From a virus, in IMG/VR virus record IMGVR_UViG_3300045988_091428, positions 1 to 43,244 of that record: a DNA stretch of 43,244 bases; one strand, 5' to 3'. Position numbers and translations under genes: made by a program. The first letter of the stretch is position 1. Every line of letters starts with the position of its first letter. Below, one piece after another: positions 2,101 to 20,491 of this stretch. The notes under the pieces are model-generated. The model was not told where the DNA came from, searched no databases, and worked only from the letters and a program-made list of their open reading frames with translations.

Positions 2101-2742
2101 ATGAAAAACAAAATATTATATGAGCGTTCTTTAAGAACGTGTATCATTATGTTAGTAGTATGTATCGTGTTTAAGTTATTCGGTGTAGAATGGTTTGACT
2201 TGAACACGAGCATACCAATATTACAAGAATTAGATGAAATTATAATGAATAATTATATTTTATCATTCTTATACAGTTTGATATTTTTATCTATAAATAA
2301 TTTCTTTATTTTAGGTGTCGCCACCAAAACGAAACCTACGGATATGGTTATATGGAGTTTGAAATTTATACCTTTAAACATCCTATTAATATTTAGTAAA
2401 TATTATATTAACAATCCTTTTATTGATTTTGTTTTATTATTGTTGATGTCTTACATTATAGATAATAAAAGTATAAAAAGAATTATATGTTATAATTTAT
2501 TAAATATCGTTTATCAATTCATATCTATATTTATTAGAAATGTAGGTATGATTGAATTGACAGGTGTTGTAACAACTACATTATTGATGATAGATTATTA
2601 TATAATGTTAGTTATTACATATTTATTTCAATTATTAGGAGGTATAGATTTATGGTATTCCCAAGTTATTTCTTCTTCCCTAGTCACAAAGCTATGGAAA
2701 AAGCGTTCAAAAAATTATTTAAAAAATAAAGGAGACGATTAA
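2101..2742 (+). CDS. polytopic membrane protein, unknown function
   Basis: 213 aa with about 6 hydrophobic segments and a basic C-terminal tail. No motif recognised. Confidence 0.6.
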   Translation: MKNKILYERSLRTCIIMLVVCIVFKLFGVEWFDLNTSIPILQELDEIIMNNYILSFLYSLIFLSINNFFILGVATKTKPTDMVIWSLKFIPLNILLIFSKYYINNPFIDFVLLLLMSYIIDNKSIKRIICYNLLNIVYQFISIFIRNVGMIELTGVVTTTLLMIDYYIMLVITYLFQLLGGIDLWYSQVISSSLVTKLWKKRSKNYLKNKGDD

Positions 2743-2743
2743 G

Positions 2744-3316
2744 ATGGGTAAACGTGAGAAAGTGATGTTTACGATATTCGTGATTGTAACTCAAATGCTA
2801 CAATTCTTGTTAGTTTACTCAATAGCGTGGTTGAACGACCGAACTATTGAGTTTTTATTTATATTTTTCAGTTTTCAAATAAATAGAATGGTATTTGGTA
2901 AATCATACCATGCGGATAGCTTATCTAAATGTACATTGATTACATTAGTGATATTTTATTTCTTGATTAAAGGTATTATTCCTTTAGATGTTTCATTATT
3001 CGCTACACCTCTTTTTGGAGTGTATCTATCCTATGTGTTAAATGCGATACAGGAACTGATTGATAATCAAGAAGTTCCTAAACCTTTTGTAAAGAAGAAA
3101 TTGAGAGAACAAGTCATTGATATATTAGGTGATGATTTAAGTGAGGAACACGTAGAAGATATTTGTTTGAAGCATGGATTAAGTTTGAAAGTATCTGAAA
3201 CAGTTTATCTTTATATTTCAAATTCAAAAGATGATGTAGCAGATATACTAGATATTCAAGGTGTTACAGTTATTAGAAGATTGAAGAAGTTTATAGAGAA
3301 AGCGACTTTAAAATAA
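2744..3316 (+). CDS. membrane protein with an AgrB-like His/Cys motif and a C-terminal sigma-70 region-4-like HTH
   Basis: About 4 TM segments. R-MVF-GKSYHADSLSKC has His and Cys 7 residues apart, as in the AgrB motif R..GG.HA.S...C. The C-terminus SETVYLYISNSKDDVADILDIQGVTVIRRLKKFIEKA looks like sigma region 4. Confidence 0.45.
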   Translation: MGKREKVMFTIFVIVTQMLQFLLVYSIAWLNDRTIEFLFIFFSFQINRMVFGKSYHADSLSKCTLITLVIFYFLIKGIIPLDVSLFATPLFGVYLSYVLNAIQELIDNQEVPKPFVKKKLREQVIDILGDDLSEEHVEDICLKHGLSLKVSETVYLYISNSKDDVADILDIQGVTVIRRLKKFIEKATLK

Positions 3317-3325
3317 GTCGTTTTT
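3303..3325 (+). terminator. rho-independent terminator
   Basis: cgactt (3303-3308) / aagtcg (3315-3320), then tttttatttt. Confidence 0.5.
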
Positions 3326-3403
3326 ATTTTGTAATGATACTTAAATTATACTATATTTGAGATTTAAAAGGAGTAAAGTTGAAACTGTAAGGAGGGATGA
3401 GTT

Positions 3404-3877
3404 ATGAACAACTATTATAATCCCGTGCAATCTCGTATGGACTCGCTCATGCAACAAAAAGCATTGATAGACCAACAAATTCAATCTTTACAACAAATGA
3501 GCGTTCCTAATATTAATATCAATAATATGCCATCAAATTCACCCACATCAAATTTCGATTTCAACGGTAAATGGGTGGATGGAGAAGAACAAGCTAGAAA
3601 TATTGCAAACAACAATCTACCTTTGATTTTATTTGATAACAATAATCCTATCTTCTATATGAAGAACATGGATGGTGGGTTTAAAAAATTCAAATTTGAA
3701 GAAATCAAAGAAGAAAAGGTAGAAAGTGCAGATACACAACGTATGGATATGCTAGAGGCTAAAATGGACACTATTTTAAAGGCGCTACAAGGCGAACCTC
3801 AACAAGTACAACAAAATGTACCTAGTGAACCAAAAACTCCTCAAAACGCAAGAAAAGGGGGTAAAACAAATGGCTAA
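3404..3877 (+). CDS. Q/N-rich hypothetical protein
   Basis: AGGAGGG RBS. 157 aa, low-complexity Q/N-rich ends around a W.DGEE...LFD..NP.FY.K core. Confidence 0.6.
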   Translation: MNNYYNPVQSRMDSLMQQKALIDQQIQSLQQMSVPNININNMPSNSPTSNFDFNGKWVDGEEQARNIANNNLPLILFDNNNPIFYMKNMDGGFKKFKFEEIKEEKVESADTQRMDMLEAKMDTILKALQGEPQQVQQNVPSEPKTPQNARKGGKTNG

Positions 3878-4118
3878 CCCTTTAAAGTCTTTCATGGGCG
3901 GTAATTCAAATCCTATTGCAGGTATGATGAACCCTCAAAATATGCTCATGAATATGTTAAAACAACGTAACCCTCAAATGTTCAATCAAGTAAGCCAAAT
4001 GATGAATAATGGAGTCAATCCCAATGACTTCATGAAACAAATGGGAGTTACACCTCAACAAATGGAAATGGCTAAACAACAAGCCAAAAAGATGTTTGGT
4101 AACAACATTAAATTCTAA
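3870..4118 (+). CDS. Q/N/M-rich small hypothetical protein
   Basis: ATG at 3870 overlaps the upstream stop. 82 aa with repeated NPQ/MMN motifs. Confidence 0.55.
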   Translation: MANPLKSFMGGNSNPIAGMMNPQNMLMNMLKQRNPQMFNQVSQMMNNGVNPNDFMKQMGVTPQQMEMAKQQAKKMFGNNIKF

Positions 4119-4155
4119 TGTGGTTATAAATATATTATAGAAAGGAAGATGTCTT

Positions 4156-4794
4156 ATGACTGACGGAGGAATGGGTATTCAACCTACTTACAATCTAGCT
4201 GAAAGAGACAATGATGGTTTCGGTGACGGTTTTGGCGCATGGTTTTGGGTTATCTTAGTCTTATTATTTTGTAATAATGGTTGGGGTAACAATAATTTCG
4301 CTAATGACGCATTATTTGATGATGAGTTCATTAAACGTGATATTTTTAATACTAACCAAAACGTTTCTAACTCTGCTTGTCAAACTCAACGTGATGTATT
4401 GGAAAGTCGCTATACTACTCAATTAGGTATGCAAAACCTACAAGCTAGTCAACAAGAATGTTGCTGTACAACTCAACGTGCGATTGACAACGTAGTAGCA
4501 CAAGATTATAAAAACACTTGTGAAATCACTACAGCAATCCATGCTGAAGGTGAAGCAACTAGAGCCTTAATCAATGCTAACACAATGCAAGAATTAAGAG
4601 ATAGATTAGCCGATAGAGATAGAGAATTATTAACTGCTAATTTCCAATTATCTCAACAAGCACAATCAGCTAACATTATCAGTACATTACAACCTACACC
4701 TAAACCAGCATATCTTACTTGCTCACCATATTATACTTATAATAGTGGTGCTTGTTTCGGTAATGGTTGCGGATGTAATGGAACAAATTTATAA
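4156..4794 (+). CDS. membrane-anchored Cys-rich protein (Gly/aromatic N-terminus plus TM, Cys/Gly-rich C-terminus)
   Basis: GFGDGFGAWFWVILVLLFCNNGWGNNNF, then a Q-rich helical region with a CCC triplet. It ends CSPYYTYNSGACFGNGCGCNGTNL. Confidence 0.65.
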   Translation: MTDGGMGIQPTYNLAERDNDGFGDGFGAWFWVILVLLFCNNGWGNNNFANDALFDDEFIKRDIFNTNQNVSNSACQTQRDVLESRYTTQLGMQNLQASQQECCCTTQRAIDNVVAQDYKNTCEITTAIHAEGEATRALINANTMQELRDRLADRDRELLTANFQLSQQAQSANIISTLQPTPKPAYLTCSPYYTYNSGACFGNGCGCNGTNL

Positions 4795-5540: not shown

Positions 5541-6001
5541 GCATGAAGAAAATGTACCAACAAGCCATGAGTCATCCACAAGTAATCGAAAAGATGATGG
5601 AGGACTTTGATATTGTCATGGATATTATGAAAACCGAACACCCAGAACGCTATCGTGACATCAAAACAAATCTATACATTTTAATCAATGGTTATCATTT
5701 CGATAAGGAAACATTAGATGATATTCTAGAAGATATAGTAAATGATGATGGCTCAAAAGCACCTAAATGGAGTGTAGAAGAAACAAACTCTGTCGCACGT
5801 AGCAATGGTATCTCTTTTAGGGATTTCAACGAATACGATTGGAATTATGCTATGAATATGATATACAGTGATTATTGTGAAGTATTGGGAGACAACGTAA
5901 CATCCTATGTTCGTATGGCTCACAAGTTCTTGAACGATAAAGACGCACCAGAAGGAAAAGCTTTAAGGTATGCAATGTGTATGAAAAAAGACTACAAATA
6001 A
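5537..6001 (+). CDS. hypothetical protein
   Basis: GGAGGG RBS. 154 aa. Last gene before the convergent terminators. Confidence 0.6.
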   Translation: MSMKKMYQQAMSHPQVIEKMMEDFDIVMDIMKTEHPERYRDIKTNLYILINGYHFDKETLDDILEDIVNDDGSKAPKWSVEETNSVARSNGISFRDFNEYDWNYAMNMIYSDYCEVLGDNVTSYVRMAHKFLNDKDAPEGKALRYAMCMKKDYK

Positions 6002-6019
6002 TGTAGTCTTTTTCTTTTT
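5984..6019. terminator. bidirectional-type terminator hairpin
   Basis: aaaaaa-gactaca-aataa-tgtagtc-tttttcttttt, overlapping the stop codon at 5999-6001. Confidence 0.6.
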
Positions 6020-6059
6020 AAGCAGTAATTGATTTAATGATTGTGTCCATTATAAATGA

Positions 6060-6087
6060 GTGAGAGGTGATGGGTAAGACCTCTCAC
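6060..6087 (-). terminator. terminator hairpin ending the leftward arm
   Basis: gtgagaggt (6060-6068) / acctctcac (6079-6087). The downstream T-run is weak. Confidence 0.4.
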
Positions 6088-6097
6088 ATATATTATT

Positions 6098-6436
6098 CTA
6101 GCATACATATTTATTGTTGTAAACATCATTTAACAATTTTTTTATTTGTTCAAAATCATTTGTAATGATTGCTATTCCACCTGCATTGTTTATCTTTCGA
6201 CATTCAATTTCCTGTTGTTTACTTGGCCGTCCTGTTCCATCTTCTCTTTTAAGTTCTAAACCTATCAATCTTCCATTGATACATACTATTATATCTGGCA
6301 CTCCACTTCTTTGCGAAGCGTTACCACCGATATTTAAAAACCACGCTTTTTCTTTAAACGTGGTTTTAATATATGTTTCAACCTTCTTGACTATGTTTGA
6401 CTCTAAAGGCGACCTATTAAAGGTCATCTTCTTCAT
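6098..6436 (-). CDS. VRR-NUC domain nuclease (PD-(D/E)xK)
   Basis: GVPDIIVC...LIGLELKREDG...Q matches the VRR-NUC core. Confidence 0.75.
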   Translation of the reverse strand: MKKMTFNRSPLESNIVKKVETYIKTTFKEKAWFLNIGGNASQRSGVPDIIVCINGRLIGLELKREDGTGRPSKQQEIECRKINNAGGIAIITNDFEQIKKLLNDVYNNKYVC

Positions 6437-6877: not shown

Positions 6878-7987
6878 CTATTTTTTCTTTCTCAATGTTA
6901 GTGTTTCTTTTGTTGATTTAATTTCATACTTGTCTAATACACCGTCAAGTTCCATTGCTTCAACATCATAAGAAACAACTTCTTCAACTGTTTTAGATAA
7001 TGTATAGTTACCTAAAACTGCTTTTGTATCGTTATCTCCCATTTGTGAAGATAACTGTTCTTTGATACCATTTTCACAAGCTTTTAATTGTTTTTCTAAT
7101 TCCGCTAAACCTGTTTCTTTTTTGATGGTATCTATTTTAGCGATAAGTTCATTTGCTTTAGCAACTAAATCATTATCGTCTAAATCATTTTGAGGTTTTG
7201 AAGTTCTTAAAATATCTAAATATTCTTTGTCCTTCACTTCATCAAATACAGGACTGAAACCTGTCTTGATATGTTCATCATACCACTTATTGGCTAATTC
7301 AATCAAGCCTTTAATGTTAAAATGATTTACAGGAATTTTATCGTCTTTTTCTAAAACAACGATTTCCCCGTCTGTAATATCGATATAAGTTTTATTCACG
7401 TCATATGTGAATAATTGAGTATTGCTATCATCTACTACAAAGTTTTGAGGATTGTTATAATCATCATCTTTTAAGAATGATACAACTAAATGTACTCTTT
7501 TAGCACCTTCTAAATAAGCATATTCTAATGCTTGACATAAGTAATAAACAGGTGGATTGTCCACCCAATCCTCTGCACGTTTGGTAGTCTTATATTCAAA
7601 AATATCTGACACCTTACCGCTAGGACGAACGAGTTTACTGTCCCACATACCACCGTAGATTTTTTCATTAGGATAGAAGTCATATTTGACTTCATTATAT
7701 CTGTTACCGAAAAATTCTTCTGGTGATAATACGTTTTCGCTAATTTGTTCTTTGGTCCATTTAATTTGTTTTGGTTCAATAGCTTTACCAGCTAAAGTAT
7801 AAATCGTATCTTCAAATGGAGGTCTAGCACATTTAGTGATTTCACACCACATTTGAAATGGAGTATTCCATTTATTCAATCCTAAAATCCCTGCTAGACG
7901 AGTACCTGTAACTTTTAATTTACTTCTTGGCTCTCCATCTACTAAAATAATTCTTTTCCCATCTTCGCTATATTTCCAATCTAACAT
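6878..7987 (-). CDS. YqaJ/lambda-exonuclease-like PD-(D/E)xK recombination exonuclease with a C-terminal coiled coil
   Basis: The N-terminus TGTRLAGILGLNKW.TPF..W and ...D...IFEYKTT fit the YqaJ-type fold. It is adjacent to the ERF-like annealase. Confidence 0.65.
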   Translation of the reverse strand: MLDWKYSEDGKRIILVDGEPRSKLKVTGTRLAGILGLNKWNTPFQMWCEITKCARPPFEDTIYTLAGKAIEPKQIKWTKEQISENVLSPEEFFGNRYNEVKYDFYPNEKIYGGMWDSKLVRPSGKVSDIFEYKTTKRAEDWVDNPPVYYLCQALEYAYLEGAKRVHLVVSFLKDDDYNNPQNFVVDDSNTQLFTYDVNKTYIDITDGEIVVLEKDDKIPVNHFNIKGLIELANKWYDEHIKTGFSPVFDEVKDKEYLDILRTSKPQNDLDDNDLVAKANELIAKIDTIKKETGLAELEKQLKACENGIKEQLSSQMGDNDTKAVLGNYTLSKTVEEVVSYDVEAMELDGVLDKYEIKSTKETLTLRKKK

Positions 7988-7992
7988 TTTTC

Positions 7993-8313
7993 TTATCCTC
8001 TATCTTCCATAATTTCTATGCCATAATTTATACATACATCATACTCAATGACACATCCTCTATAATTCATCCAATCGCCTATAAATAAAACTAAATCACA
8101 TTCACTTAATAATTCTAAAGATTTACCTACCCAATAGACACCACTATTCTTCACATCTTTTGGTTCATCTTCTGTAAAATAACTTTCAGCTACTTCAAAA
8201 CCTTCATTTAATCTACGTGATAATCTTTCAATAGCTTTATCTCTTGCTTCTATAATTTCATCTTGCGTTTTACCACGCATTGGTTGACTTACAAATAATC
8301 TTCTCATAATCAT
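7993..8313 (-). CDS. DUF4406 / nucleoside 2-deoxyribosyltransferase-like protein
   Basis: SQPMRGKT...GFEV...LLSECDLVLFIGDWMNYRGCVIEYDVCINYGIEI fits the PM.G...CD..L.GW..S.G...E...A...G pattern. Confidence 0.55.
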   Translation of the reverse strand: MIMRRLFVSQPMRGKTQDEIIEARDKAIERLSRRLNEGFEVAESYFTEDEPKDVKNSGVYWVGKSLELLSECDLVLFIGDWMNYRGCVIEYDVCINYGIEIMEDRG

Positions 8314-8327
8314 TTGAGAGTTGGGGG

Positions 8328-11036
8328 TTATTCAACCCCTAACTCGTCCGCCTTTTCTTCAATCTTTGTCATCATAGAAACTGCTTTTGTTTTAGTTAAA
8401 GTCATTTCGCCTTTTTTGAATTTTTCAAGGTTGACTAAAGTTTTTTCACCATATCCTGGTTTCTTTTCTTGACAAGCTTTGATTAAATCAATCATTTCAT
8501 CTACATAAGTCATAGTTGGTTGGTCGTCATTTACGACTTCTTGTTTAGCTTCTTCTCTTTCTTCTTTAGTTGGAGGAGGTGTAGGTTTAGATTTTTTAGG
8601 CTCATCCTTTGTTACATTTAAAGGTTTTTCTTCCGCTTTTCTATCTTCTTTAGCCGACTCTGGGTCGATTTCATCTTGCGTTTCTGGTAACAAGAAATTA
8701 TTTAATACGAAGTATTTGATAGCCATTGTTTCAGCTTTGTAAATACCCTTATCCAAATTGTCACTACCTTCTGCAATAATTGGATAATCTTCATGTTCTC
8801 CTGTATCTGGGTCAATCAAACTCATATTTCCTTGAATGGTAATCAAGTTCATATTTTTAGTTTTTTCAAGAGGTGTGAATAATCTATTTACAATAGATAA
8901 TTTGTAAATCAATCCAACTTCTCTACATCCTTGTCCTAATACTTTACGATAGTAAGATGACTTAATGTATTCATATCCTTGTGCATCATTGTACCCATCT
9001 GTAATGTAAGGTTGTTTTGCTAAATATAGACCTAAATCAAAAATCTTTTTATATAGAGCAGGTCTTGGCTCTAATTTTGTTTTAGCTACTGCCATTTTCT
9101 TTTTCTCCTTTGTTTTCTTATTTTCTTTAATGCCTAGAAAATCATTTATTCTTTTCTTTGCAAGATTAATATACCACTCTTTATCAATAGTGTCAATAGT
9201 AATTTTACAAGAATTGTCTATAAGTGCATGGGGTGGACAATTTTGAATTGTATCTTTTCTAATAAAGAAATCTCCTTTTTCATCCGTTTCCCATGTTTTC
9301 TTATAGCTTTTCTTTCCTTTTTGATTGATATAGTATCTCGCCCATGTTTCTTCAAATTCTATTTCTTGAACCAATTCTTTACTCAAATATGTTTTCTTTA
9401 CTTTTTTAACTGCACCTAGAGTTTTATCTTTAACTGCATAGATACGATTTACCCTTTGTACTTCTATTTCTTCACCATTTACATAATAGACCGTCTTATC
9501 ATATTTACTTCCTGTTTTTCCAATAAGTTGGAATTGGAAAGGGTCATTACAAGCCATAATTGTATCTTCTACGGGAACATCATTGATGAAATAATCAATG
9601 ATAGCTTTCGCTGCAATAGAAAATGAATTGTGTTTGAATGATGGCTTATAATCGCTCACATAAGCACCTTTTACTTTCAACGAACCATCTTCTTTTTCAA
9701 GGATATAATTGTTTACGTCCTTGATAATATAACGCTTGATACCCTCAATTTCTAATTCTAGACGTGTTCTCTTTTGCCATTCATCCATAACTGCATTGGC
9801 TATATCCATTTCGCTTTCATGAATGATAAAAGCGACACCATCTGTATTTACATTAGTAAGTCTAATCGTCTTACATTGCTTACATAACTCAACACATAAA
9901 TCCGTCAATAGTAGCTGTCCTGTGACACATACTGAACGACCATTTCTAGGGTCATAACAATCACTAAACTGTTGTAATGAGATACCATAAACTGTATTGA
10001 TAGGTACTTTAAGAGAATTTGCTACTCTCTTGTCACCTCTGTGTTTAGCGTCAATACGTTCTTTCTTCATATTGAAGAATTTATTAGGGTCTGGTACTGC
10101 ACGGCTCGTAAGTCCATATTCTTCCATCAATGATGGATATAGGGAGGTTACATCCGCAATCTTTTGGACATACCCATTCTCATTTACAATGATTTCATTT
10201 TGAACACTCGCATGAACTCCGCCCCATGCAAATACCCATTCCAAACCTAAAAAATCAATTTTAAGTTTCTTATTGAAAAGTACCTCCGTAGGGATGTTTT
10301 CATCAAAAGCTTGGTAAAAGAAATCCTTTACTTCTTTAGGAATATTGCCCCAATTTACTGTATCTGGGAACTGAATATCTCTTTCATCATCAAACTCGCA
10401 CCTTTCAGCACCTAAAGAGATACTCGCTAACTGCCCATTTGTTCGATATAAGGACTCTTCTGGTGTCAAACCTTCTCTTGTACCATTGAATACTTTAGCC
10501 TCTAAATAGTCCATTCTTTCGTCAATTAAACGTGATGTAGAGTCGACATCATGGTGACAATAGAATAGCATTTCGTCAAACTCCTCTTTAGTCCACGGAT
10601 GGTCTATTTTGAAATCTACAGTTGACTCTTGAATATCCATTAACATATTACCTTCAAGTTCCTTTAAAGATTGTCTTAAAGGCATATCCAACATGAGGTC
10701 GCTTGTAGGTGGTATTTTGATGTACGGTTGGTCGAATGGATATGTCCATCCATCTTGTTGTTCAACGATAATATAATCGTTAATATCCTTAATATAATCT
10801 GGTGTATAATGATTTAAAACACCTTTGAGAATGTAATTATCATAATGTTTATTGTTATATCCTACATAGATAAAATCATGTTCATTGATAAAATCCTCAA
10901 CACCTTGCGGGTCATTATGGAAATCATAGAACTGTCCTGTTTGTCTATCTTTGATACATAATAACCAATCATAGGCTGTGACTTCAAAGTCGAAAGCTAC
11001 TAGTCTACTTTTCCACCCATCATTTTCTTTTCCCAT
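8328..11036 (-). CDS. family B DNA polymerase fused in frame to an ERF-like single-strand annealing domain
   Basis: Exo motifs FDFEV, YVGYNNKHYDNYIL, YCHHDVDS. Pol motifs DVTSLYPS, KVPINTVYG, NTDG. The C-terminal 255 aa (from MAVAKTK) carry an ERF-like ...GSDNLDKGIYKAETMAIKYFVLNNFLL...DEIDPE. Confidence 0.8.
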   Translation of the reverse strand: MGKENDGWKSRLVAFDFEVTAYDWLLCIKDRQTGQFYDFHNDPQGVEDFINEHDFIYVGYNNKHYDNYILKGVLNHYTPDYIKDINDYIIVEQQDGWTYPFDQPYIKIPPTSDLMLDMPLRQSLKELEGNMLMDIQESTVDFKIDHPWTKEEFDEMLFYCHHDVDSTSRLIDERMDYLEAKVFNGTREGLTPEESLYRTNGQLASISLGAERCEFDDERDIQFPDTVNWGNIPKEVKDFFYQAFDENIPTEVLFNKKLKIDFLGLEWVFAWGGVHASVQNEIIVNENGYVQKIADVTSLYPSLMEEYGLTSRAVPDPNKFFNMKKERIDAKHRGDKRVANSLKVPINTVYGISLQQFSDCYDPRNGRSVCVTGQLLLTDLCVELCKQCKTIRLTNVNTDGVAFIIHESEMDIANAVMDEWQKRTRLELEIEGIKRYIIKDVNNYILEKEDGSLKVKGAYVSDYKPSFKHNSFSIAAKAIIDYFINDVPVEDTIMACNDPFQFQLIGKTGSKYDKTVYYVNGEEIEVQRVNRIYAVKDKTLGAVKKVKKTYLSKELVQEIEFEETWARYYINQKGKKSYKKTWETDEKGDFFIRKDTIQNCPPHALIDNSCKITIDTIDKEWYINLAKKRINDFLGIKENKKTKEKKKMAVAKTKLEPRPALYKKIFDLGLYLAKQPYITDGYNDAQGYEYIKSSYYRKVLGQGCREVGLIYKLSIVNRLFTPLEKTKNMNLITIQGNMSLIDPDTGEHEDYPIIAEGSDNLDKGIYKAETMAIKYFVLNNFLLPETQDEIDPESAKEDRKAEEKPLNVTKDEPKKSKPTPPPTKEEREEAKQEVVNDDQPTMTYVDEMIDLIKACQEKKPGYGEKTLVNLEKFKKGEMTLTKTKAVSMMTKIEEKADELGVE

Positions 11037-15441: not shown

Positions 15442-15561
15442 CTAAATCACTCCCATCATTTTAAGTATGAACATCAATATTTCAACTATTGCCCATGAAA
15501 AACAAACCAATATATCAATAACTAAAAATCCTTCTAAAAATTCTTTTATCTTTTCTTTCAT
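15442..15561 (-). CDS. 39-aa transmembrane peptide
   Basis: GGAGGTG RBS. MKEKIKEFLEGFLVIDILVCFSWAIVEILMFILKMMGVI. The ORF is below the track's size cutoff. Confidence 0.45.
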   Translation of the reverse strand: MKEKIKEFLEGFLVIDILVCFSWAIVEILMFILKMMGVI

Positions 15562-15562
15562 T

Positions 15563-16069
15563 TTAGTTCACCTCCTTATATACCTTTAAAGTTTTAGTTC
15601 CTTTTTCTAAAGCTTCTTCATGCGAAGATACATAAATATCAATCTTATTACCTATGATTTTATTTCCTGTATCTTCTGCGGTGTATTCTATCCCTTCTAT
15701 GATTACTTTACTGTCAAGTGGTATTACATTAGGGTCTACAGCTATCGTATGTTTAGGACGAGGAATTGTGCCTCTATAAGTAATGTTTCCCCATACACCA
15801 TTACAAATATCACAACCACAATAATAAGTGATTTTAAACTCTCCTATACATTCTACAGTTTTAACTTCATGCACTACATAAGGTTCTTGATTTAACAGTA
15901 TATGACACATAGTATCAACTGTCTTTTTTTCTTTTACGACTTTGTTATATTTAGTAGTCAAATCATTATAATCTTCAACTAGATTGCTATGTTTGTAACT
16001 GACAAAGATAAGAGAAAATAACATCATCCATGTTACTATGGTAGACAGGACTTTTTCATATTTTTTCAT
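15563..16069 (-). CDS. membrane-anchored 3D-domain protein (MltA/RlpA-like DPBB cell-wall-binding or lytic fold)
   Basis: N-terminal TM. ITYYCGCDICNG...TIAVDPNVIPLDSKVIIEG..YTAEDTGNKIIGNKIDIYV is a 3D-domain signature. Confidence 0.7.
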   Translation of the reverse strand: MKKYEKVLSTIVTWMMLFSLIFVSYKHSNLVEDYNDLTTKYNKVVKEKKTVDTMCHILLNQEPYVVHEVKTVECIGEFKITYYCGCDICNGVWGNITYRGTIPRPKHTIAVDPNVIPLDSKVIIEGIEYTAEDTGNKIIGNKIDIYVSSHEEALEKGTKTLKVYKEVN

Positions 16070-17115
16070 AAGTCCTCACCCCATCTTTGTACAAAATCAA
16101 ATGGATACTGAACAGCTAAACTTTCAAATATAGCTTCAATCACACTTACTACAATACTATTTCCAGCCTGTTTATATAAAAATCCTCTTAATTGGTTTGA
16201 AGTAGGATTGAATTTTTTATGTAAACTTGCTTTAGCCAATTCATAATCTTTATTATCAAATCCCATTAATTGCCAACAGGTAAGAGTATTTAGATAATGA
16301 ATGTCCATATTTTTAAAATTTTCTCTTAAATTCATATCTTCTGAAATTTTCATACTATATAACTTGGTGGAAGCATTTATACCTCCACCATCACTAATAG
16401 CAATTCTTGTAGTGATAGTAGCACAAATACTGTTTGTTCCCATTACTTTATCCAATGGGTTCTGATGTGATTTCCATTTAGAAATTCTTTCAAGCCATTT
16501 ATCATCCATAGAAGTATCTTCATTGCATGGAGAACAATAGTCCTCAAATTTTGTTTCTAATTGTACAGGTGATGGAAATTCAAATCCCGTATCTATATCT
16601 TTACGAATAGAAATACCGAATACTCTTTCTCTATTTTGAGGTGTTCCGTAGTCTTTGGCATTTAATACTTTGTAATAAGTATTATATCCTGCTTCGTCTA
16701 AAGAACTTAAAATAATTTCAAATTCTTTAGCAAACTTCTTTGATGTCAAATTCTTAACATTTTCAAAAATAGCAAATTTAGGTTTTGTTTTCTCAATAAC
16801 TTCTAATGCATTGAAGAATAAACCGCTTCTTGTAATATTCCCATCTTTATCAAATAATCCCTGTTGCTTTCCTGCAAGACTTATATCTTGACATGGAAAA
16901 CCATAGGTAATCAAATCTATATTTCCTAATTTTGAATAGTCTATTGATGTAACATCTTTTAAATTCATATCTTCATCTACATTGTGAATAGCTGAATACG
17001 AACATGAAGCTTGTTCATCAATTTCACAATAATGGTCTAGTTCAAAATCAATATCTAAATTTTCAAGTGCTTTTTCAAAAGCACCTATACCGCTGAATAA
17101 GCTTAAAACTCTCAT
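16066..17115 (-). CDS. dcm: DNA (cytosine-5)-methyltransferase
   Basis: Motif I LFSGIGAF, IV GFPCQDIS, VI ENVKNL, VIII QNRERVF, X GNSIVV. Start moved to ATG 17115, which lies behind an AGGAGG RBS. Confidence 0.85.
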   Translation of the reverse strand: MRVLSLFSGIGAFEKALENLDIDFELDHYCEIDEQASCSYSAIHNVDEDMNLKDVTSIDYSKLGNIDLITYGFPCQDISLAGKQQGLFDKDGNITRSGLFFNALEVIEKTKPKFAIFENVKNLTSKKFAKEFEIILSSLDEAGYNTYYKVLNAKDYGTPQNRERVFGISIRKDIDTGFEFPSPVQLETKFEDYCSPCNEDTSMDDKWLERISKWKSHQNPLDKVMGTNSICATITTRIAISDGGGINASTKLYSMKISEDMNLRENFKNMDIHYLNTLTCWQLMGFDNKDYELAKASLHKKFNPTSNQLRGFLYKQAGNSIVVSVIEAIFESLAVQYPFDFVQRWGEDL

Positions 17116-17117
17116 AA

Positions 17118-17558
17118 CTAACCTCCTATAAATTCTTTCAATTTGTATTTGATAAAGCAAAGACTGACTTGTGGTTTACCCACAGACTTACGAGTATCAA
17201 CTCGTAGCTTGTCTATAGTTCTCACTTCACTAAAATTCAATCTAGACTTTGTTTTTCTTCCATTGATAATAACAGGAATGTCCATTTCAGTTGGAGCAGG
17301 ACACTCATCTTTGATACTTGTTGATGGAATAACAAGAAATTTTCCTATCATATCTTTGACAACATAACACCAATGTCCAAAGCACATTTCAAGAGGGAAA
17401 CCCACATCTAATTGAACGTAGACCATATCTCCCTCTTGAATATCCATTTGAGGGTTACATACCCATCTAGGATTTCCTTTGGACTGTTCCCAATAGAACT
17501 CCCATTCTCTTTTCATATGCTCGTAAGCATATTTTAAATTATCTCTAGTAATTTCCAT
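17118..17558 (-). CDS. PemK/MazF-fold protein with a ~45-aa N-terminal extension
   Basis: EGDMVYVQLDVGFPLEMCFGHWCYVVK and SEVRTIDKLRV parallel EndoA/MazF [27 protein letters not shown] and EQIRTIDKQRL. Confidence 0.65.
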   Translation of the reverse strand: MEITRDNLKYAYEHMKREWEFYWEQSKGNPRWVCNPQMDIQEGDMVYVQLDVGFPLEMCFGHWCYVVKDMIGKFLVIPSTSIKDECPAPTEMDIPVIINGRKTKSRLNFSEVRTIDKLRVDTRKSVGKPQVSLCFIKYKLKEFIGG

Positions 17559-17796
17559 AAGCCACCCCCTCTAATTTTTCTAATTTTTCTTTCAATTCTT
17601 CTCTTTGACATTGAAGTTCTTGAAATTCATCTTCCATATCGTTAGACATGCCTTCTTCATATGACATACAAGTCAAATCTCCTTCTATATCTTCGAGTCT
17701 ATATTTTACATCCTCAATTTCTTCTAAAACTCTTTGGTCTGGCTCATTATTGTAATAAGCCTCATTTGTTATTCTTTCTAGATAAGTGTCAAACAT
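17545..17796 (-). CDS. strongly acidic small protein (candidate antitoxin or DNA mimic)
   Basis: 83 aa, about a third D/E by my count. It overlaps the MazF-like start by 14 nt and is the first gene behind the internal promoter. Confidence 0.5.
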   Translation of the reverse strand: MFDTYLERITNEAYYNNEPDQRVLEEIEDVKYRLEDIEGDLTCMSYEEGMSNDMEDEFQELQCQREELKEKLEKLEGVAYGNY

Positions 17797-17810
17797 TTTA
17801 TATTTCCTTT

Positions 17811-17827
17811 GATAACCTTTGGTTATC
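17811..17827. promoter_or_regulatory. perfect 7-3-7 palindrome gataacc-ttt-ggttatc between the promoter and the first gene (candidate operator)
   Basis: Read directly. It lies between the -10 box at 17844-17849 and the ATG at 17796. Confidence 0.5.
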
Positions 17828-17843
17828 TCCTTTCCTTGACTAT

Positions 17844-17872
17844 ATATTACTATAGATTTCTAATAATGTCAA
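17844..17872 (-). promoter_or_regulatory. consensus sigma-A type promoter TTGACA-17-TAATAT (leftward)
   Basis: The reverse complement reads ttgaca ttattagaaatctatag taatat. Confidence 0.65.
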
Positions 17873-17882
17873 CAAATATATG

Positions 17883-17909
17883 AAAAAAGAGTAAAAATAT
17901 TTTTACTCT
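17883..17909 (-). terminator. rho-independent terminator
   Basis: Palindrome agagtaaa..tttactct followed, on the minus strand, by a 6-nt U-run. It overlaps the stop codon of 17903-18151. Confidence 0.6.
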
Positions 17910-18151
17910 TCTCTATCAACTGTACATACAATAACTTTTCCTCGATACCCATTACTTCGCCAATCTATTGCGTTACCTTCAAGTTCATAGTCACCTGCAT
18001 TTAACTTTTTAACAGGTAAATCTAACAATAAATCTGAACAAAATGGTACTATATTTTTTGGTAATAAAATACATTCATGCCTTTGATTTATGTTTTTAAC
18101 ATAAAGCAATATTCCTTCATCCATTATCTCTAAAATATCTCTTACTGTCAT
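17903..18151 (-). CDS. hypothetical protein
   Basis: Start moved to ATG 18151, 8 nt after AAGGAGG. The track start at 18172 would contain the RBS. Confidence 0.5.
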   Translation of the reverse strand: MTVRDILEIMDEGILLYVKNINQRHECILLPKNIVPFCSDLLLDLPVKKLNAGDYELEGNAIDWRSNGYRGKVIVCTVDREE

Positions 18152-18164
18152 TTTCTTTTCCTCC

Positions 18165-20312
18165 TTATGCACTTACAGTAAATGATTTCTTATAATTCTT
18201 TAATTGAACTCCTACAATCCCTCTTACCTGCTTCTTATTGATATACACTTTTTCTTGTGATATTAAATCGCTTACTTTTTGAGGGTTCATAATCTTTTTA
18301 GACAAATTTGCTTTATAGGTCTTTCTAATGACCTTACCAAATGTGTTCTTATGAATAACCAAATAGTTATTGTCTTGACACCAATTTTCGTAAGCGTCAT
18401 ATAACTGTTTGATTGACACTTTATCGTCTTTATCTCCCGTATATTTAATGAACTGCTCATCACTCATGAACAATTGGATAGTATCACTACTATCTCTTAC
18501 CGATTGCAATTCTTGTGTCATACGCACGGATGGTTCGATAATGAAACCATTTCTAACGACTCTACATAGTCCTTCTAGAAGCCAATTAATGATACCTGGT
18601 ATTTCTTGGTCTAATTGGTCTGACAAGGTTCTGTCTGGCTTATCATAATTTACAGGTTTAACTTTTGAAATCAACAATCTTCTATAGAAACCGTCACTTC
18701 TATCGAATTTCGATTGTATAGCTCCGTTTCCACAACATAATATCCTTGAATAAAGCTTAGTCTTATATTTAGGTTTTCCTTTTGGTTCGACTTCCATTGT
18801 CGTTTCAGCTGTTACAATCTTTTTGAAGTTGGACGTATCATCTAAAGCTTCTAACGATAAATCATCATCTATAAACATCATTTGTTTATCTAATGAAGTT
18901 GTAGAGAATTTATCTTGAAGTCCAATGAAGTCACCGATAACGACATTGTCATGGCCGATAATATGCTCCATTAGAATTGTAATTCTTGATTTACCTTCAC
19001 CACCTTCTCCTACAATAAAGAGTGCTGTTTGAGCAAGAGTGTTCGGTACTAGACAATACCCTAAATACTCTTGAATAACAGGAATATCTTCATCATAGAA
19101 AAGATTATTGATAAACCTTTTGAATTTAGGACAGTCTGCTTTGGCATCATAGTTGTGCGGTATCTGATGGAGTGTAAAAAAGGTGTCACATTCTTCAAGC
19201 TTACCATGTCGAACATCAAAGCTGATGTTATCAAACTGTACTTTATACTTGTCTGGTGCGTCTAGTTTAGTAAATGCTTCATTCTTGACACTTGCTAATA
19301 GAGACTCTACTTTAGCTGACAAACGAGTTGTAATAATACCACCTATGATATTATGAATGTTGTTTCTAAACTCATTATCGCTAATTTGACCATATCGTGT
19401 ATAAAATCTATCATTGATACAATAAAGTTCATTTCTTTTGACATACCATTCTGCAAATTTCTTGTCATTGATATTAACTGTTCCTGTCTCGTCAAAAGAA
19501 ATCCAATCTACTTTCAAATCATCTTCATTACTAGAGTCCAATTTTGACTCATTGATACTTTTTTCGACATTATTTGCTTTATTTGTCTTATCCGTCTTAA
19601 TCATAGAGTCGACAATCGTCTTGACTTCATCTTCATCAAGAGGTGGATTACACGACTCCTCGTTATACTTCAAAGCTTTTTTTAATACAGTTGCTTTCTT
19701 TAATTTTTTACCTAATAGCGACCCTACATAACTCGCTAGAGTATTATTACGTCCACCTTCTTCGACCTCGCTAGGGGCTTCAAATGGCTTGTTTGAAAGC
19801 AACAAAGTATCTTCATCTACTTCTTCACATAGATATTGTTTCCATTTTTGAGGTAGTTCCGCTATTTCATACTCAAATGGACTGTTCACCCATTCATAAT
19901 AAGTACCGTCAATTTGACTTGGTGCTTCTACTGTTTGAGTACCATCCGCCTGTATGTCGATACCCTCACCAACATTCTTTCTATTTCTAATTCCTTTGAC
20001 ATATTTGAAATAATAGTGAATACCACCGCTAGGGGTTTCACTCATAACTGTTTGGGGCAATTCTCCTAACTGTTCTTCTAATCTTTCTAGGGTGGCTACA
20101 CCATCTGTATTTTTGACATCCACGTCGATACATACAAGATTGCTTGTCGCTCCCATGATGATACCTATATTTGAGGTATCTTTGAATTTGTCCAATGTTT
20201 CATCATTGGATTGTATTTTCGACCAATTCTTGATGATAGGTCTTTTATCATTTGGTTTGATAGGCATAACGACCCATCCCAATTTATCATAAGCTTTTGC
20301 ATATTCTAGCAT
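18165..20312 (-). CDS. bifunctional primase-polymerase (Prim-Pol N-terminus) plus D5/P4-type SF3 helicase
   Basis: The N-terminus LGWVVMPI...KRP...VCIDVDV...GGIHYYF is Prim-Pol-like. Walker A is VGEGGEGKS, Walker B is MMFIDD. Confidence 0.85.
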   Translation of the reverse strand: MLEYAKAYDKLGWVVMPIKPNDKRPIIKNWSKIQSNDETLDKFKDTSNIGIIMGATSNLVCIDVDVKNTDGVATLERLEEQLGELPQTVMSETPSGGIHYYFKYVKGIRNRKNVGEGIDIQADGTQTVEAPSQIDGTYYEWVNSPFEYEIAELPQKWKQYLCEEVDEDTLLLSNKPFEAPSEVEEGGRNNTLASYVGSLLGKKLKKATVLKKALKYNEESCNPPLDEDEVKTIVDSMIKTDKTNKANNVEKSINESKLDSSNEDDLKVDWISFDETGTVNINDKKFAEWYVKRNELYCINDRFYTRYGQISDNEFRNNIHNIIGGIITTRLSAKVESLLASVKNEAFTKLDAPDKYKVQFDNISFDVRHGKLEECDTFFTLHQIPHNYDAKADCPKFKRFINNLFYDEDIPVIQEYLGYCLVPNTLAQTALFIVGEGGEGKSRITILMEHIIGHDNVVIGDFIGLQDKFSTTSLDKQMMFIDDDLSLEALDDTSNFKKIVTAETTMEVEPKGKPKYKTKLYSRILCCGNGAIQSKFDRSDGFYRRLLISKVKPVNYDKPDRTLSDQLDQEIPGIINWLLEGLCRVVRNGFIIEPSVRMTQELQSVRDSSDTIQLFMSDEQFIKYTGDKDDKVSIKQLYDAYENWCQDNNYLVIHKNTFGKVIRKTYKANLSKKIMNPQKVSDLISQEKVYINKKQVRGIVGVQLKNYKKSFTVSA

Positions 20313-20314
20313 TA

Positions 20315-20491
20315 TCACTTCCTCCTGTTATCCACTTTATCTTGAAGCCACTCGTCAATTTCTTCCTTGAAACAATGAGGGCGCTTACTTAAAGTATAAT
20401 GCACAGGCATACCTTTGTCACGATAAATATAGAATGTACTTCGACCTATCTCTAGATAATTCATCACTTCTTTGATTGACATTCTTTTCAT
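20315..20491 (-). CDS. small HTH_17 (excisionase/AlpA-like) DNA-binding protein
   Basis: 58 aa, MKRMSIKEVMNYLEIGRSTFYIYRDKGMPVHYTLSKRPHCFKEEIDEWLQDKVDNRRK. GGAGGAAG RBS. The ORF is below the track's size cutoff. Confidence 0.6.
   Translation of the reverse strand: MKRMSIKEVMNYLEIGRSTFYIYRDKGMPVHYTLSKRPHCFKEEIDEWLQDKVDNRRK

Follow-up and report, generated by a model that had tools for sequence, protein, structure and literature searches.

Toxins of the MazF/EndoA and PemK/Kid type (PF02452; PDB 4ME7, 4MDX, 1NE8, 4MZM and 5CR2) are built on an SH3-like barrel, and two MazF residues, namely Arg25 and Thr48, are crucial in that mutating either one abolishes activity (PMC7354611). The same fold is found in phage PemK-like proteins (PHROG 1936; BFVD A0A8S5QB91; Lactobacillus phage ViSo-2018a A0A3G6JHC3; Brochothrix phage A9 gp171), of which those in BFVD are 140-270 amino acids (aa) long in total and in several cases N-terminally extended. 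Phages also make small inhibitors of MazF, namely AimX and YosL of phi3T (PMC10769878). Orphan C5 cytosine DNA methyltransferases of the Dcm type, similar to M.HhaI, are likewise phage-borne; they carry the full set of motifs, have no cognate endonuclease, and presumably serve as protection from host restriction. Among antitoxins, epsilon of the epsilon/zeta system is acidic and does not bind DNA. Here we describe a locus of a gut phage that encodes a small acidic protein, a 146-aa protein with a predicted MazF/PemK fold, and an orphan C5 methyltransferase, in this order. It resides on the minus strand of IMG/VR virus record IMGVR_UViG_3300045988_091428 (positions 1 to 43,244), and this entire stretch of 43,244 nucleotides (nt) is called the window below.

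The interpretation that we favor, which we hold with roughly even confidence as a whole, is that a long operon of the replication module, running leftward, has its 5′ end in this region, that the 146-aa protein is an RNA-directed MazF-like protein of a type that lives without an antitoxin, and that the methyltransferase is a swappable passenger. An earlier, sequence-only reading of the window had proposed coordinates for the open reading frames (ORFs), hairpin, promoter and palindrome, and these all hold when checked against the ORF list, scans and RNA folding. The features are as follows.

17883-17914, minus strand: intrinsic-terminator-like, AT-rich hairpin with a 14-base-pair stem followed by a U-run, identified by RNA folding
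17844-17872, minus strand: promoter of the sigma-70/sigma-A type, TTGACA-17-TAATAT, matching the consensus at 10/12 positions
17811-17827, no strand assigned: perfect 7-3-7 palindrome GATAACC-TTT-GGTTATC in the predicted 5′ untranslated region (UTR), about +10 to +26 past the -10 box
17545-17796, minus strand: 83-aa acidic protein, from the ORF translation, with a pI of 4.05 and a net charge of -17.5
17118-17558, minus strand: 146-aa MazF/PemK-fold protein, from the ORF translation and from fold and profile comparisons
16066-17115, minus strand: 349-aa orphan C5 cytosine DNA methyltransferase, recognized by PF00145, TIGR00675 and motifs read in the translation

The genes are packed as tightly as had been noted. 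Behind the conserved terminator and promoter, the ORF for the very acidic protein overlaps that for the 146-aa protein by 14 nt, and the ATG of the methyltransferase gene begins 2 nt after the stop codon of the latter.

The AlphaFold2 (AF2) model of the 146-aa protein (pLDDT, the predicted local distance difference test, 77.6) consists of an N-terminal helix spanning residues 5-28 and an SH3-like barrel. When this model is compared to the PDB with Foldseek, the top 50 matches are all MazF proteins (E down to 1.4e-4; target-normalised TM score 0.56-0.73), and the top matches in BFVD are the phage ‘PemK-like’ proteins, with which it shares only 10-25% identity. The sequence also weakly matches the PHROG 1936 family ‘MazF-like growth inhibitor’ with an E of 0.01. 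When a profile was run against 1.84 billion representatives, 101 relatives emerged, 70 of which form the clade alignment used below. PF02452 is matched by 33/70 of these aligned members at E ≤ 0.01 (best 1.3e-13), and hhalign pairs the clade with Bacillus subtilis MazF, using a query verified to be identical to PDB 4ME7, at 95% probability and an E of 3.9e-8. Because the Foldseek matches, the PF02452 matches of the clade and the hhalign comparison agree, we consider the relationship to MazF settled and, on the strength of sequence and model, regard the 146-aa protein as a real MazF/PemK-fold homologue. A MazF/PemK-like protein with an N-terminal extension had been proposed from the letters alone, and both fold and profile comparisons bear this out. 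Judging by the alignment, the protein belongs to an undescribed MazF/PemK clade of about 100 clusters, which is matched by no model in NCBIfam or PADLOC.

The premise that a MazF protein would be unusual in a phage is nevertheless a weak one, given PHROG 1936, the many PemK-like phage proteins in BFVD, and the fact that the 146-aa protein is already labeled “endoribonuclease” in GenBank, where its neighbor is labeled ‘cytosine-specific methyltransferase’. With the fold assignment already in GenBank and the MazF fold already known in phages, the locus does not overturn current ideas, and what is new here are the features of the clade. Three of these distinguish it from MazF and PemK proteins as previously described.

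First, the clade carries a near-invariant histidine in place of the catalytic arginine. The resemblance to MazF/PemK is otherwise extensive, and includes the G-D-x-hydrophobic N-terminal strand, the glutamate of the β1-β2 loop, the P-x-T-S element with the catalytic threonine, and the R-T-I-D-K-x-R signature; the motifs EGDMVYV and RTIDKLR are both present in the 146-aa protein. The hhalign comparison with B. subtilis MazF pairs Glu57 with Glu20, Thr80 with Thr48, RTIDKLR with RTIDKQR, and His62 with Arg25. Thus the position of the catalytic arginine (Arg25 in B. subtilis, Arg29 in Escherichia coli) is taken by His62, and histidine is found there in 69/70 clade members. Other columns are similarly constant (E57 in 68/70, P78 in 70/70, S81 in 63/70 and R119 in 69/70), and the column aligned to Thr48 (Thr52 in E. 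coli) holds 50 Thr and 8 Ser among the 70 sequences. In the most distant members, the ‘RPVLVI’ of canonical MazF is replaced by ‘HPCVVL’. We therefore list E57, H62, T80/S81, R113 and R119 as putative active-site residues, with His62 a plausible general acid/base in a protein whose catalytic activity we infer from sequence. The expectation that catalytic residues would be seen on alignment was accordingly borne out for the threonine, at Thr80, and failed for the arginine; the Thr/Ser of the P-x-T-S element and the R-x-I-D-x-x-R signature are retained. Depletion of cleavage motifs from the phage genome, another proposed check, is not evident: ACA and UACAU on sense strands have observed/expected ratios of 1.03 and 0.99, and these are sites of known MazF enzymes that may not be those of this clade.

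Second, the clade adds a helical N-terminal extension to the barrel. Relative to MazF/PemK toxins, 40-70 aa are added; in phages the extension measures about 40 aa, as compared with about 60-90 aa for the cellular members, such that the phage copies are short of approximately 20 or more N-terminal residues that are present in the cellular ones.

Third, the cellular members of the clade occur beside the glmS gene and without a MazE/PemI gene. We surveyed one genome per species with an 18-sequence subset of the clade alignment as the query, and found at least 80 genomic loci, mostly in Erysipelotrichales/Coprobacillaceae. The genera involved include Thomasclavelia, Catenibacterium, Stoquefichus, Massilimicrobiota, Sharpea, Kandleria and Faecalibacillus, and some loci are found in Halanaerobium and Lachnospiraceae. 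Clustering of the neighboring genes reveals a divergently oriented glmS gene at 40 loci, ackA at 26, azlC at 21 and azlD at 18. The upstream neighbor is divergent in 53/71 loci, and a same-strand ORF within 60 nt upstream is found in only 4/71, among which one is rpsO and another is a split copy of the MazF-like gene itself. An Rfam scan of seven loci placed a glmS ribozyme in the intergenic space of 6/7: divergent glmS and its ribozyme adjoin the MazF-like gene in L071, L076, L052, L058, L046 and L080 (at about 3460-3800, with scores of 79-93 bits; L-numbers are our handles for related phages and loci). Because the upstream neighbors are mostly divergent, the ribozyme fills the gap, and same-strand ORFs are nearly absent, gene context indicates that the cellular clade members are solo, antitoxin-less genes rather than parts of toxin-antitoxin (TA) operons. 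A few copies reside in contexts that resemble mobile elements (L018 and L098), and one metagenome-assembled genome of Erysipelotrichaceae (L093) carries two tandem clade genes, at 3429-3932 and 3929-4429, that overlap by 4 nt.

Returning to the phage, the control elements that precede the acidic gene also bear on how the locus is to be read. The hairpin at 17883-17914 has a predicted energy of -12.4 kcal/mol (z = -5.25), which is equaled by 0/200 shuffled sequences. A simple terminator scan overlooked it because its stem has too few G-C pairs. The same hairpin sequence is present in L006 and L008, and analogous hairpins are found in L001 and L002. Considered by itself, the promoter match is at chance level, since a promoter scan returned 58 such hexamer pairs versus 54 expected. 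However, the stretch from the hairpin to the ATG is identical at 100% of nt in L017, 96% in L016 and 86% in L008 (which carries a 9-nt deletion), whereas the flanks of this stretch fall to 45-89% and the flanking proteins are only 54-85% identical in those phages. We take the regulatory elements to be functional because they are conserved beyond their flanks. An equivalent arrangement, a terminator with TTGACA-17-TAxTAT, heads the operon of the distant relatives L001 and L002, for which the identity of the MazF-like proteins is 39-47%, and the exact UTR sequence is carried by seven IMG/VR contigs. A terminator followed by a consensus promoter and then by a perfect palindrome had been seen in the letters, and this succession stands.

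The palindrome follows a Shine-Dalgarno (SD)-like element, AAGGAAAGGAG, and precedes the real ribosome-binding site (RBS). Its copy at 17811-17827 is the sole exact one in the window, where 0.13 matches with up to two mismatches are expected by chance. If formed in RNA, it would be a hairpin of 7 base pairs (-7.3 kcal/mol, z = -4.6). The element is unvarying in L006, L008 and the seven IMG/VR contigs, and is not found in L001 and L002. From its sequence, it may be either a 5′-UTR RNA hairpin or a protein-binding site. We lean towards an mRNA 5′ element, made up of the palindrome and the SD-like element, over a TA operator, since none of the genes in the unit codes for a recognizable DNA-binding protein.

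In some related phages (L002 at 2174-4550, L003 and L004), a TROVE/Ro60-like protein with a von Willebrand factor A domain and a Band_7 (SPFH) protein are encoded immediately upstream of the promoter of the MazF-like gene.

At its other end the unit is open. The stop codon of the methyltransferase gene and the start codon of the gene for a 3D-domain protein share the sequence ATGA at 16066-16069, and when the downstream intergenic gaps were folded, no hairpin followed by a U-run was seen before the arm ends in convergent terminators, at about 6000-6100. This overlap, together with the lack of a terminator in the folded gaps, indicates that the promoter heads a long operon. The unit had been described as self-contained; only its 5′ boundary is present, and transcription would continue past 16066. 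The long leftward operon includes genes for an SNF2 helicase, a DNA polymerase, a YqaJ-type exonuclease and a nucleoside deoxyribosyltransferase. The genes that flank the unit are these.

18165-20318, minus strand: prim-pol/D5-type primase-helicase, upstream of the unit
17903-18151, minus strand: 82-aa ORF, just upstream of the terminator hairpin, with its stop codon inside the hairpin
15563-16069, minus strand: 3D-domain protein, the next gene of the operon, whose ATG overlaps the methyltransferase stop codon
13359-14051: HNH protein, the sole nuclease-like ORF near the methyltransferase gene

The ORFs scanned in the window included no integrase, and the GC composition across the unit carries no signature of foreign DNA. 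A megablast search of GenBank phages with positions 15500-20400 produced zero matches, and tblastn found one unannotated record of 7.6 kb with 32% identity.

We propose that the conserved terminator would end the primase transcript and that the conserved sigma-A-type promoter would restart transcription, with the SD-like element and the 7-base-pair hairpin perhaps acting to stabilize the mRNA 5′ end or to assist translation. The phage copy of the MazF-like protein would bind or cleave RNA, in a sequence-specific manner, with host or phage RNA as its target, and its activity would be either tolerable or limited by its own N-terminal domain. It is the antitoxin-less cellular members, at their housekeeping position, that lead us to this RNA-directed, self-limited interpretation. 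Hence we do not read the protein as a classical addiction toxin, RNase activity itself being a presumption. The acidic protein, predicted to be a helical hairpin, is a constant and translationally coupled partner in this phage cluster that may modulate the MazF-like protein through conserved surfaces, and the methyltransferase would be an anti-restriction cassette, exchanged independently within a recombination slot that follows the MazF-like gene. A more specific formulation, which we put forward tentatively and with clearly less confidence, is that the clade is a distinct, antitoxin-less branch of MazF proteins defined by the His variant and a built-in helical domain, that it resides beside glmS in Erysipelotrichales, and that it was captured by lytic phages, in which it became a recombination hot spot for deep alleles and serves to cut host RNA or to neutralize the host copy. 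An active His-variant clade would enlarge the MazF toolbox by a new mode of catalysis and perhaps by a new cleavage specificity. It would also be an instance of a MazF-fold protein living without an antitoxin in both bacteria and phages, which bears on how toxin folds become domesticated.

Several observations weigh against the interpretation that we favor. Taken alone, the 146-aa protein matches the Pfam model PemK_toxin (PF02452) with an E of just 0.0098 and 16.5 bits, versus a cut-off of 23.1, and a 13-sequence profile of its close homologues has no MazF match among PDB sequences. The change from Arg to His could reflect lost or altered chemistry. The N-terminal helix is modeled with a pLDDT of about 60-66, and its role is a guess. 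Because the palindrome never varies, covariation does not separate an RNA structure from a DNA operator. The host group of the phage is probably Erysipelotrichales, by an assignment that is indirect. Finally, the antitoxin-first gene order and the 14-nt overlap are the classical layout of type II TA systems.

This last point leads to an alternative that we consider possible, if distinctly less probable than the interpretation above: the two genes are a classical type II TA pair, in which the acidic protein is an antitoxin that plugs the RNA groove of the MazF-like protein and the palindrome is the operator, with host mRNA shutoff, lysis timing or exclusion of competing phages as the proposed roles. 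In addition to the gene order and overlap, the net charge of -17.5 of the acidic partner favors such a pair, as do the precedent of AimX and YosL, the occurrence of both genes in every cluster phage examined, and the presence of small acidic ORFs in the same operon of L001 and L002. The last of these arguments is diminished by the fact that homology to those ORFs is not demonstrable. An hhalign comparison of the acidic family with the L002 peptide gives an E of 4e-4 but a probability of 34% over 16 residues, such that homology is not established, and no match is obtained with the L001 acidic ORF.

The acidic protein itself provides further arguments against a TA pair. Its AF2 model (pLDDT 78.6) includes a short N-terminal helix and a helical hairpin made of helices 21-46 and 52-80, and Foldseek yields no significant fold match in the PDB, DNA mimics included (the best has an E of 0.55 and is a generic coiled coil). 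The protein also has no family match in Pfam, PHROG, NCBIfam or PADLOC. Thus neither a DNA-binding fold nor an antitoxin fold is apparent (Pfam, NCBIfam, Foldseek), in contrast to MazEF/PemIK modules, whose AbrB/RHH-type (ribbon-helix-helix) antitoxins have no counterpart by Pfam, NCBIfam or PADLOC in the acidic protein encoded upstream here. AimX, YosL and epsilon are comparable in that each is a small helical or acidic protein of a mobile element that is located beside a toxin or acts on one. However, the acidic protein shows no sequence or fold similarity to them.

Moreover, the acidic protein and the MazF-like protein do not co-vary. Homologues of the acidic protein fall into 38 clusters and three length classes (76, 83 and 96 aa), with unvarying parts confined to the N-terminal 35 aa and a C-terminal AYG tail, the latter being dual-coded with the RBS and start codon of the MazF-like gene. 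When allele distances are compared over all pairs, the Spearman rho is 0.13 (p = 0.44). The MazF-like proteins of L012, L114 and L115 are 95-97% identical, and the acidic proteins that accompany them are 76, 83 and 96 aa long and only 55-76% identical. Conversely, L006 and L017 carry identical acidic proteins and MazF-like proteins that are 77% identical. The alleles of the two genes assort independently. Two other facts argue against a TA pair, namely that the cellular clade members have no antitoxin gene, and that the palindrome is located downstream of the -10 box, clear of the promoter. Any interaction between the two proteins would need to involve the conserved surfaces, and an antitoxin function for the acidic protein is possible but unsupported.

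At the corresponding place in L002 (4638-4829, in phages of the P0015 type), the promoter is followed by an ORF for an extremely acidic peptide of 33 aa, MDNLDYMFDEYLYGCADESYDARYGDEEEEDYE, and a hydrophobic peptide of 31 aa is encoded between it and the MazF-like gene. The peptide starts with ‘MFDEYL’, in weakly supported resemblance to the N-terminus of the acidic protein.

Comparison of the window with its closest relatives reveals a mosaic. Against L016 and L017, nt identity stands at 90-98% across the primase and 3D-domain regions and falls to 45-80% in the 82-aa ORF, in the central part of the acidic gene and over most of the MazF-like gene. In phages with primases 97-99% identical to that of the window, the MazF-like proteins share between 64% and 100% of their residues. 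The swapped segments of the MazF-like gene have dS values (synonymous divergence) above 1 and dN/dS ratios (nonsynonymous to synonymous) of 0.1-0.4, the mark of purifying selection. The comparison suggests that old alleles have been reshuffled under purifying selection. Positive selection on the MazF-like gene was considered and rejected at these dN/dS values, the variability arising from old alleles and recombination, with no adaptive change detectable. The 82-aa ORF (17903-18151) is hypervariable, being 62-65% identical at the nt level to relatives whose flanks are 93-98% identical, and distant relatives encode a DUF3850/ASCH-like protein at its position.

Such mosaicism could also be expected if the phage protein were a mimic or decoy, which pairs with a host solo MazF-like protein as a heterodimer or titrates its regulator, and in this way disarms what would be a fused, self-inhibited defense nuclease of the host. 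The host group, Erysipelotrichales, has members of this family at a conserved locus, MazF proteins function as dimers, and the phage copies lack N-terminal residues of the cellular ones. Furthermore, the MazF-like gene is the most mosaic part of a backbone that is otherwise 90-98% identical, and its segments are swapped at dS > 1, as is often true of genes in arms races. We nonetheless judge this explanation improbable. Every conserved putative active-site residue is kept, which would be superfluous in a pure decoy; dN/dS lies far below 1; and the host gene occupies a housekeeping setting and is matched by no PADLOC model. The roles of phage-driven host shutoff and of a decoy for a host antitoxin, which had both been suggested from the sequence, are speculation.

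The methyltransferase is a complete enzyme by sequence criteria. It matches PF00145 at 1.5e-64 over profile positions 1-322 of 324, and TIGR00675 at 3.2e-62 (211 bits versus a cut-off of 100.65), and the motifs FSGIGAF, GFPCQ, ENV, QNRER and GNSIVV can be read in its translation. PADLOC calls it MTase_II/oMTase. Its catalytic domain matches M.HhaI at 3e-32, whereas its target-recognition region has no match in the PDB. No restriction endonuclease gene adjoins it, since its neighbors are the MazF-like gene and the gene for the 3D-domain protein. The assignment of a Dcm-type methyltransferase with no cognate restriction enzyme alongside is consequently upheld.

In contrast, the suggestion that a toxin enforces retention of the methyltransferase fares poorly. 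We surveyed the slot after the MazF-like gene in 16 close relatives, the window included. A C5 methyltransferase occupies it in 7/16 (the window, L008, L016 in split form, L017 and L117-119), an unrelated N6/N4 methyltransferase in 6/16 (L006, L012/13, L014, L114, L115, where it is split, and L116), and it is empty in 3/16 (L010, L011 and L015). The MazF-like gene is intact whatever the slot holds. The 2-nt spacing between the two genes speaks for addiction, and 13/16 close relatives do have some methyltransferase in the slot. However, the family in the slot alternates between C5 and N6/N4, three phages combine an intact MazF-like gene with an empty slot, the methyltransferases of L016 and L115 are split, and in distant relatives no methyltransferase adjoins the MazF-like gene. 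We therefore consider methylase addiction very improbable indeed, and the alternation of C5, N6/N4 and empty states leads us to regard the methyltransferase as an exchangeable anti-restriction cassette. The possibility that the C5 methyltransferase had been relocated elsewhere in relatives was rejected upon finding it in the same slot. The split genes lie at 4399-5493 in L016 (C5, with 97-98% identity to that of the window) and at 3221-3993 in L115 (N6/N4), and are either frameshift pseudogenes or assembly errors.

Restriction appears to have shaped this genome in other ways. The 43,244-nt window contains 0 copies of GATC versus about 118-129 expected, and additional sites are avoided as well, with observed versus expected counts of 7/74 for CTNAG, 42/115 for GANTC, 1/15 for CCGG, 2/19 for CGCG, 5/25 for GCNGC, 4/19 for GGNCC, 1/23 for GATATC and 2/19 for GAATTC. 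The close relatives, compared as pieces of 8-16 kb, likewise avoid GATC. In comparison, L001, which carries a Dam gene, and L002, which carries an N6/N4 methyltransferase gene, have ordinary GATC frequencies of 17-20 per 10 kb. This avoidance is consistent with restriction as the dominant pressure on the genome. Together with the alternating slot, these counts illustrate two routes of escape, in which a phage either avoids GATC completely or carries a Dam or N6/N4 methylase and an ordinary number of GATC sites. The least-depleted palindromes that contain C, which are GCGC, CCNGG and AGCT, are mere candidates for the targets of the methyltransferase. L001 also encodes a bifunctional, FolD-like methylene-tetrahydrofolate dehydrogenase/cyclohydrolase (7459-8262), and its Dam gene lies at 668-1141.

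Given this heavy restriction pressure, one might view the locus as an anti-restriction islet, wherein the acidic protein is a DNA mimic similar to Ocr or ArdA that is encoded beside a methyltransferase, and the MazF-like gene is an unrelated neighbor. The protein is indeed very acidic, small and helical, its gene is the first after a strong promoter, and the methyltransferase slot is only two genes away. We find this unlikely. Comparison to solved folds, DNA mimics among them, gave no similarity beyond the generic coiled coil, and no family match emerged for the protein, such that the proposed check against antitoxins and Ocr/ArdA-like mimics detected nothing. In addition, the acidic gene is always fused by the 14-nt overlap to the start of the MazF-like gene, whether or not a methyltransferase is present. 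A DNA-mimic function, like that of an antitoxin, is possible but unsupported.

A few observations made elsewhere in the window deserve mention. Between the large terminase and portal genes, a tRNA-like element (28904-28991, plus strand) matches the Rfam tRNA model at 36 bits, barely above threshold, and ARAGORN reports it as an abnormal ‘tRNA-???’ with a two-base anticodon. In the replication operon, a gene similar to nucleoside 2-deoxyribosyltransferases (7993-8313, minus strand; phrog_355, 5.2e-14) might function in nucleotide salvage or DNA base modification. Also on the minus strand, a 902-aa protein (8328-11036) contains a DNA polymerase region at residues 11-643 (phrog_1252, 1.3e-133), and its C-terminal residues 680-896 match Erf-like single-stranded DNA-annealing proteins at 8.8e-10; Pfam offers no match for the protein, which by sequence looks like an unusual polymerase/Erf-like fusion. 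Lastly, a 190-aa ORF (2744-3316, plus strand) that adjoins the endolysin gene (1161-2075) matches AgrB, the accessory gene regulator B protein of quorum-sensing peptide maturation (Pfam 4.6e-11), and may be a phage-borne signaling gene of the agr type.

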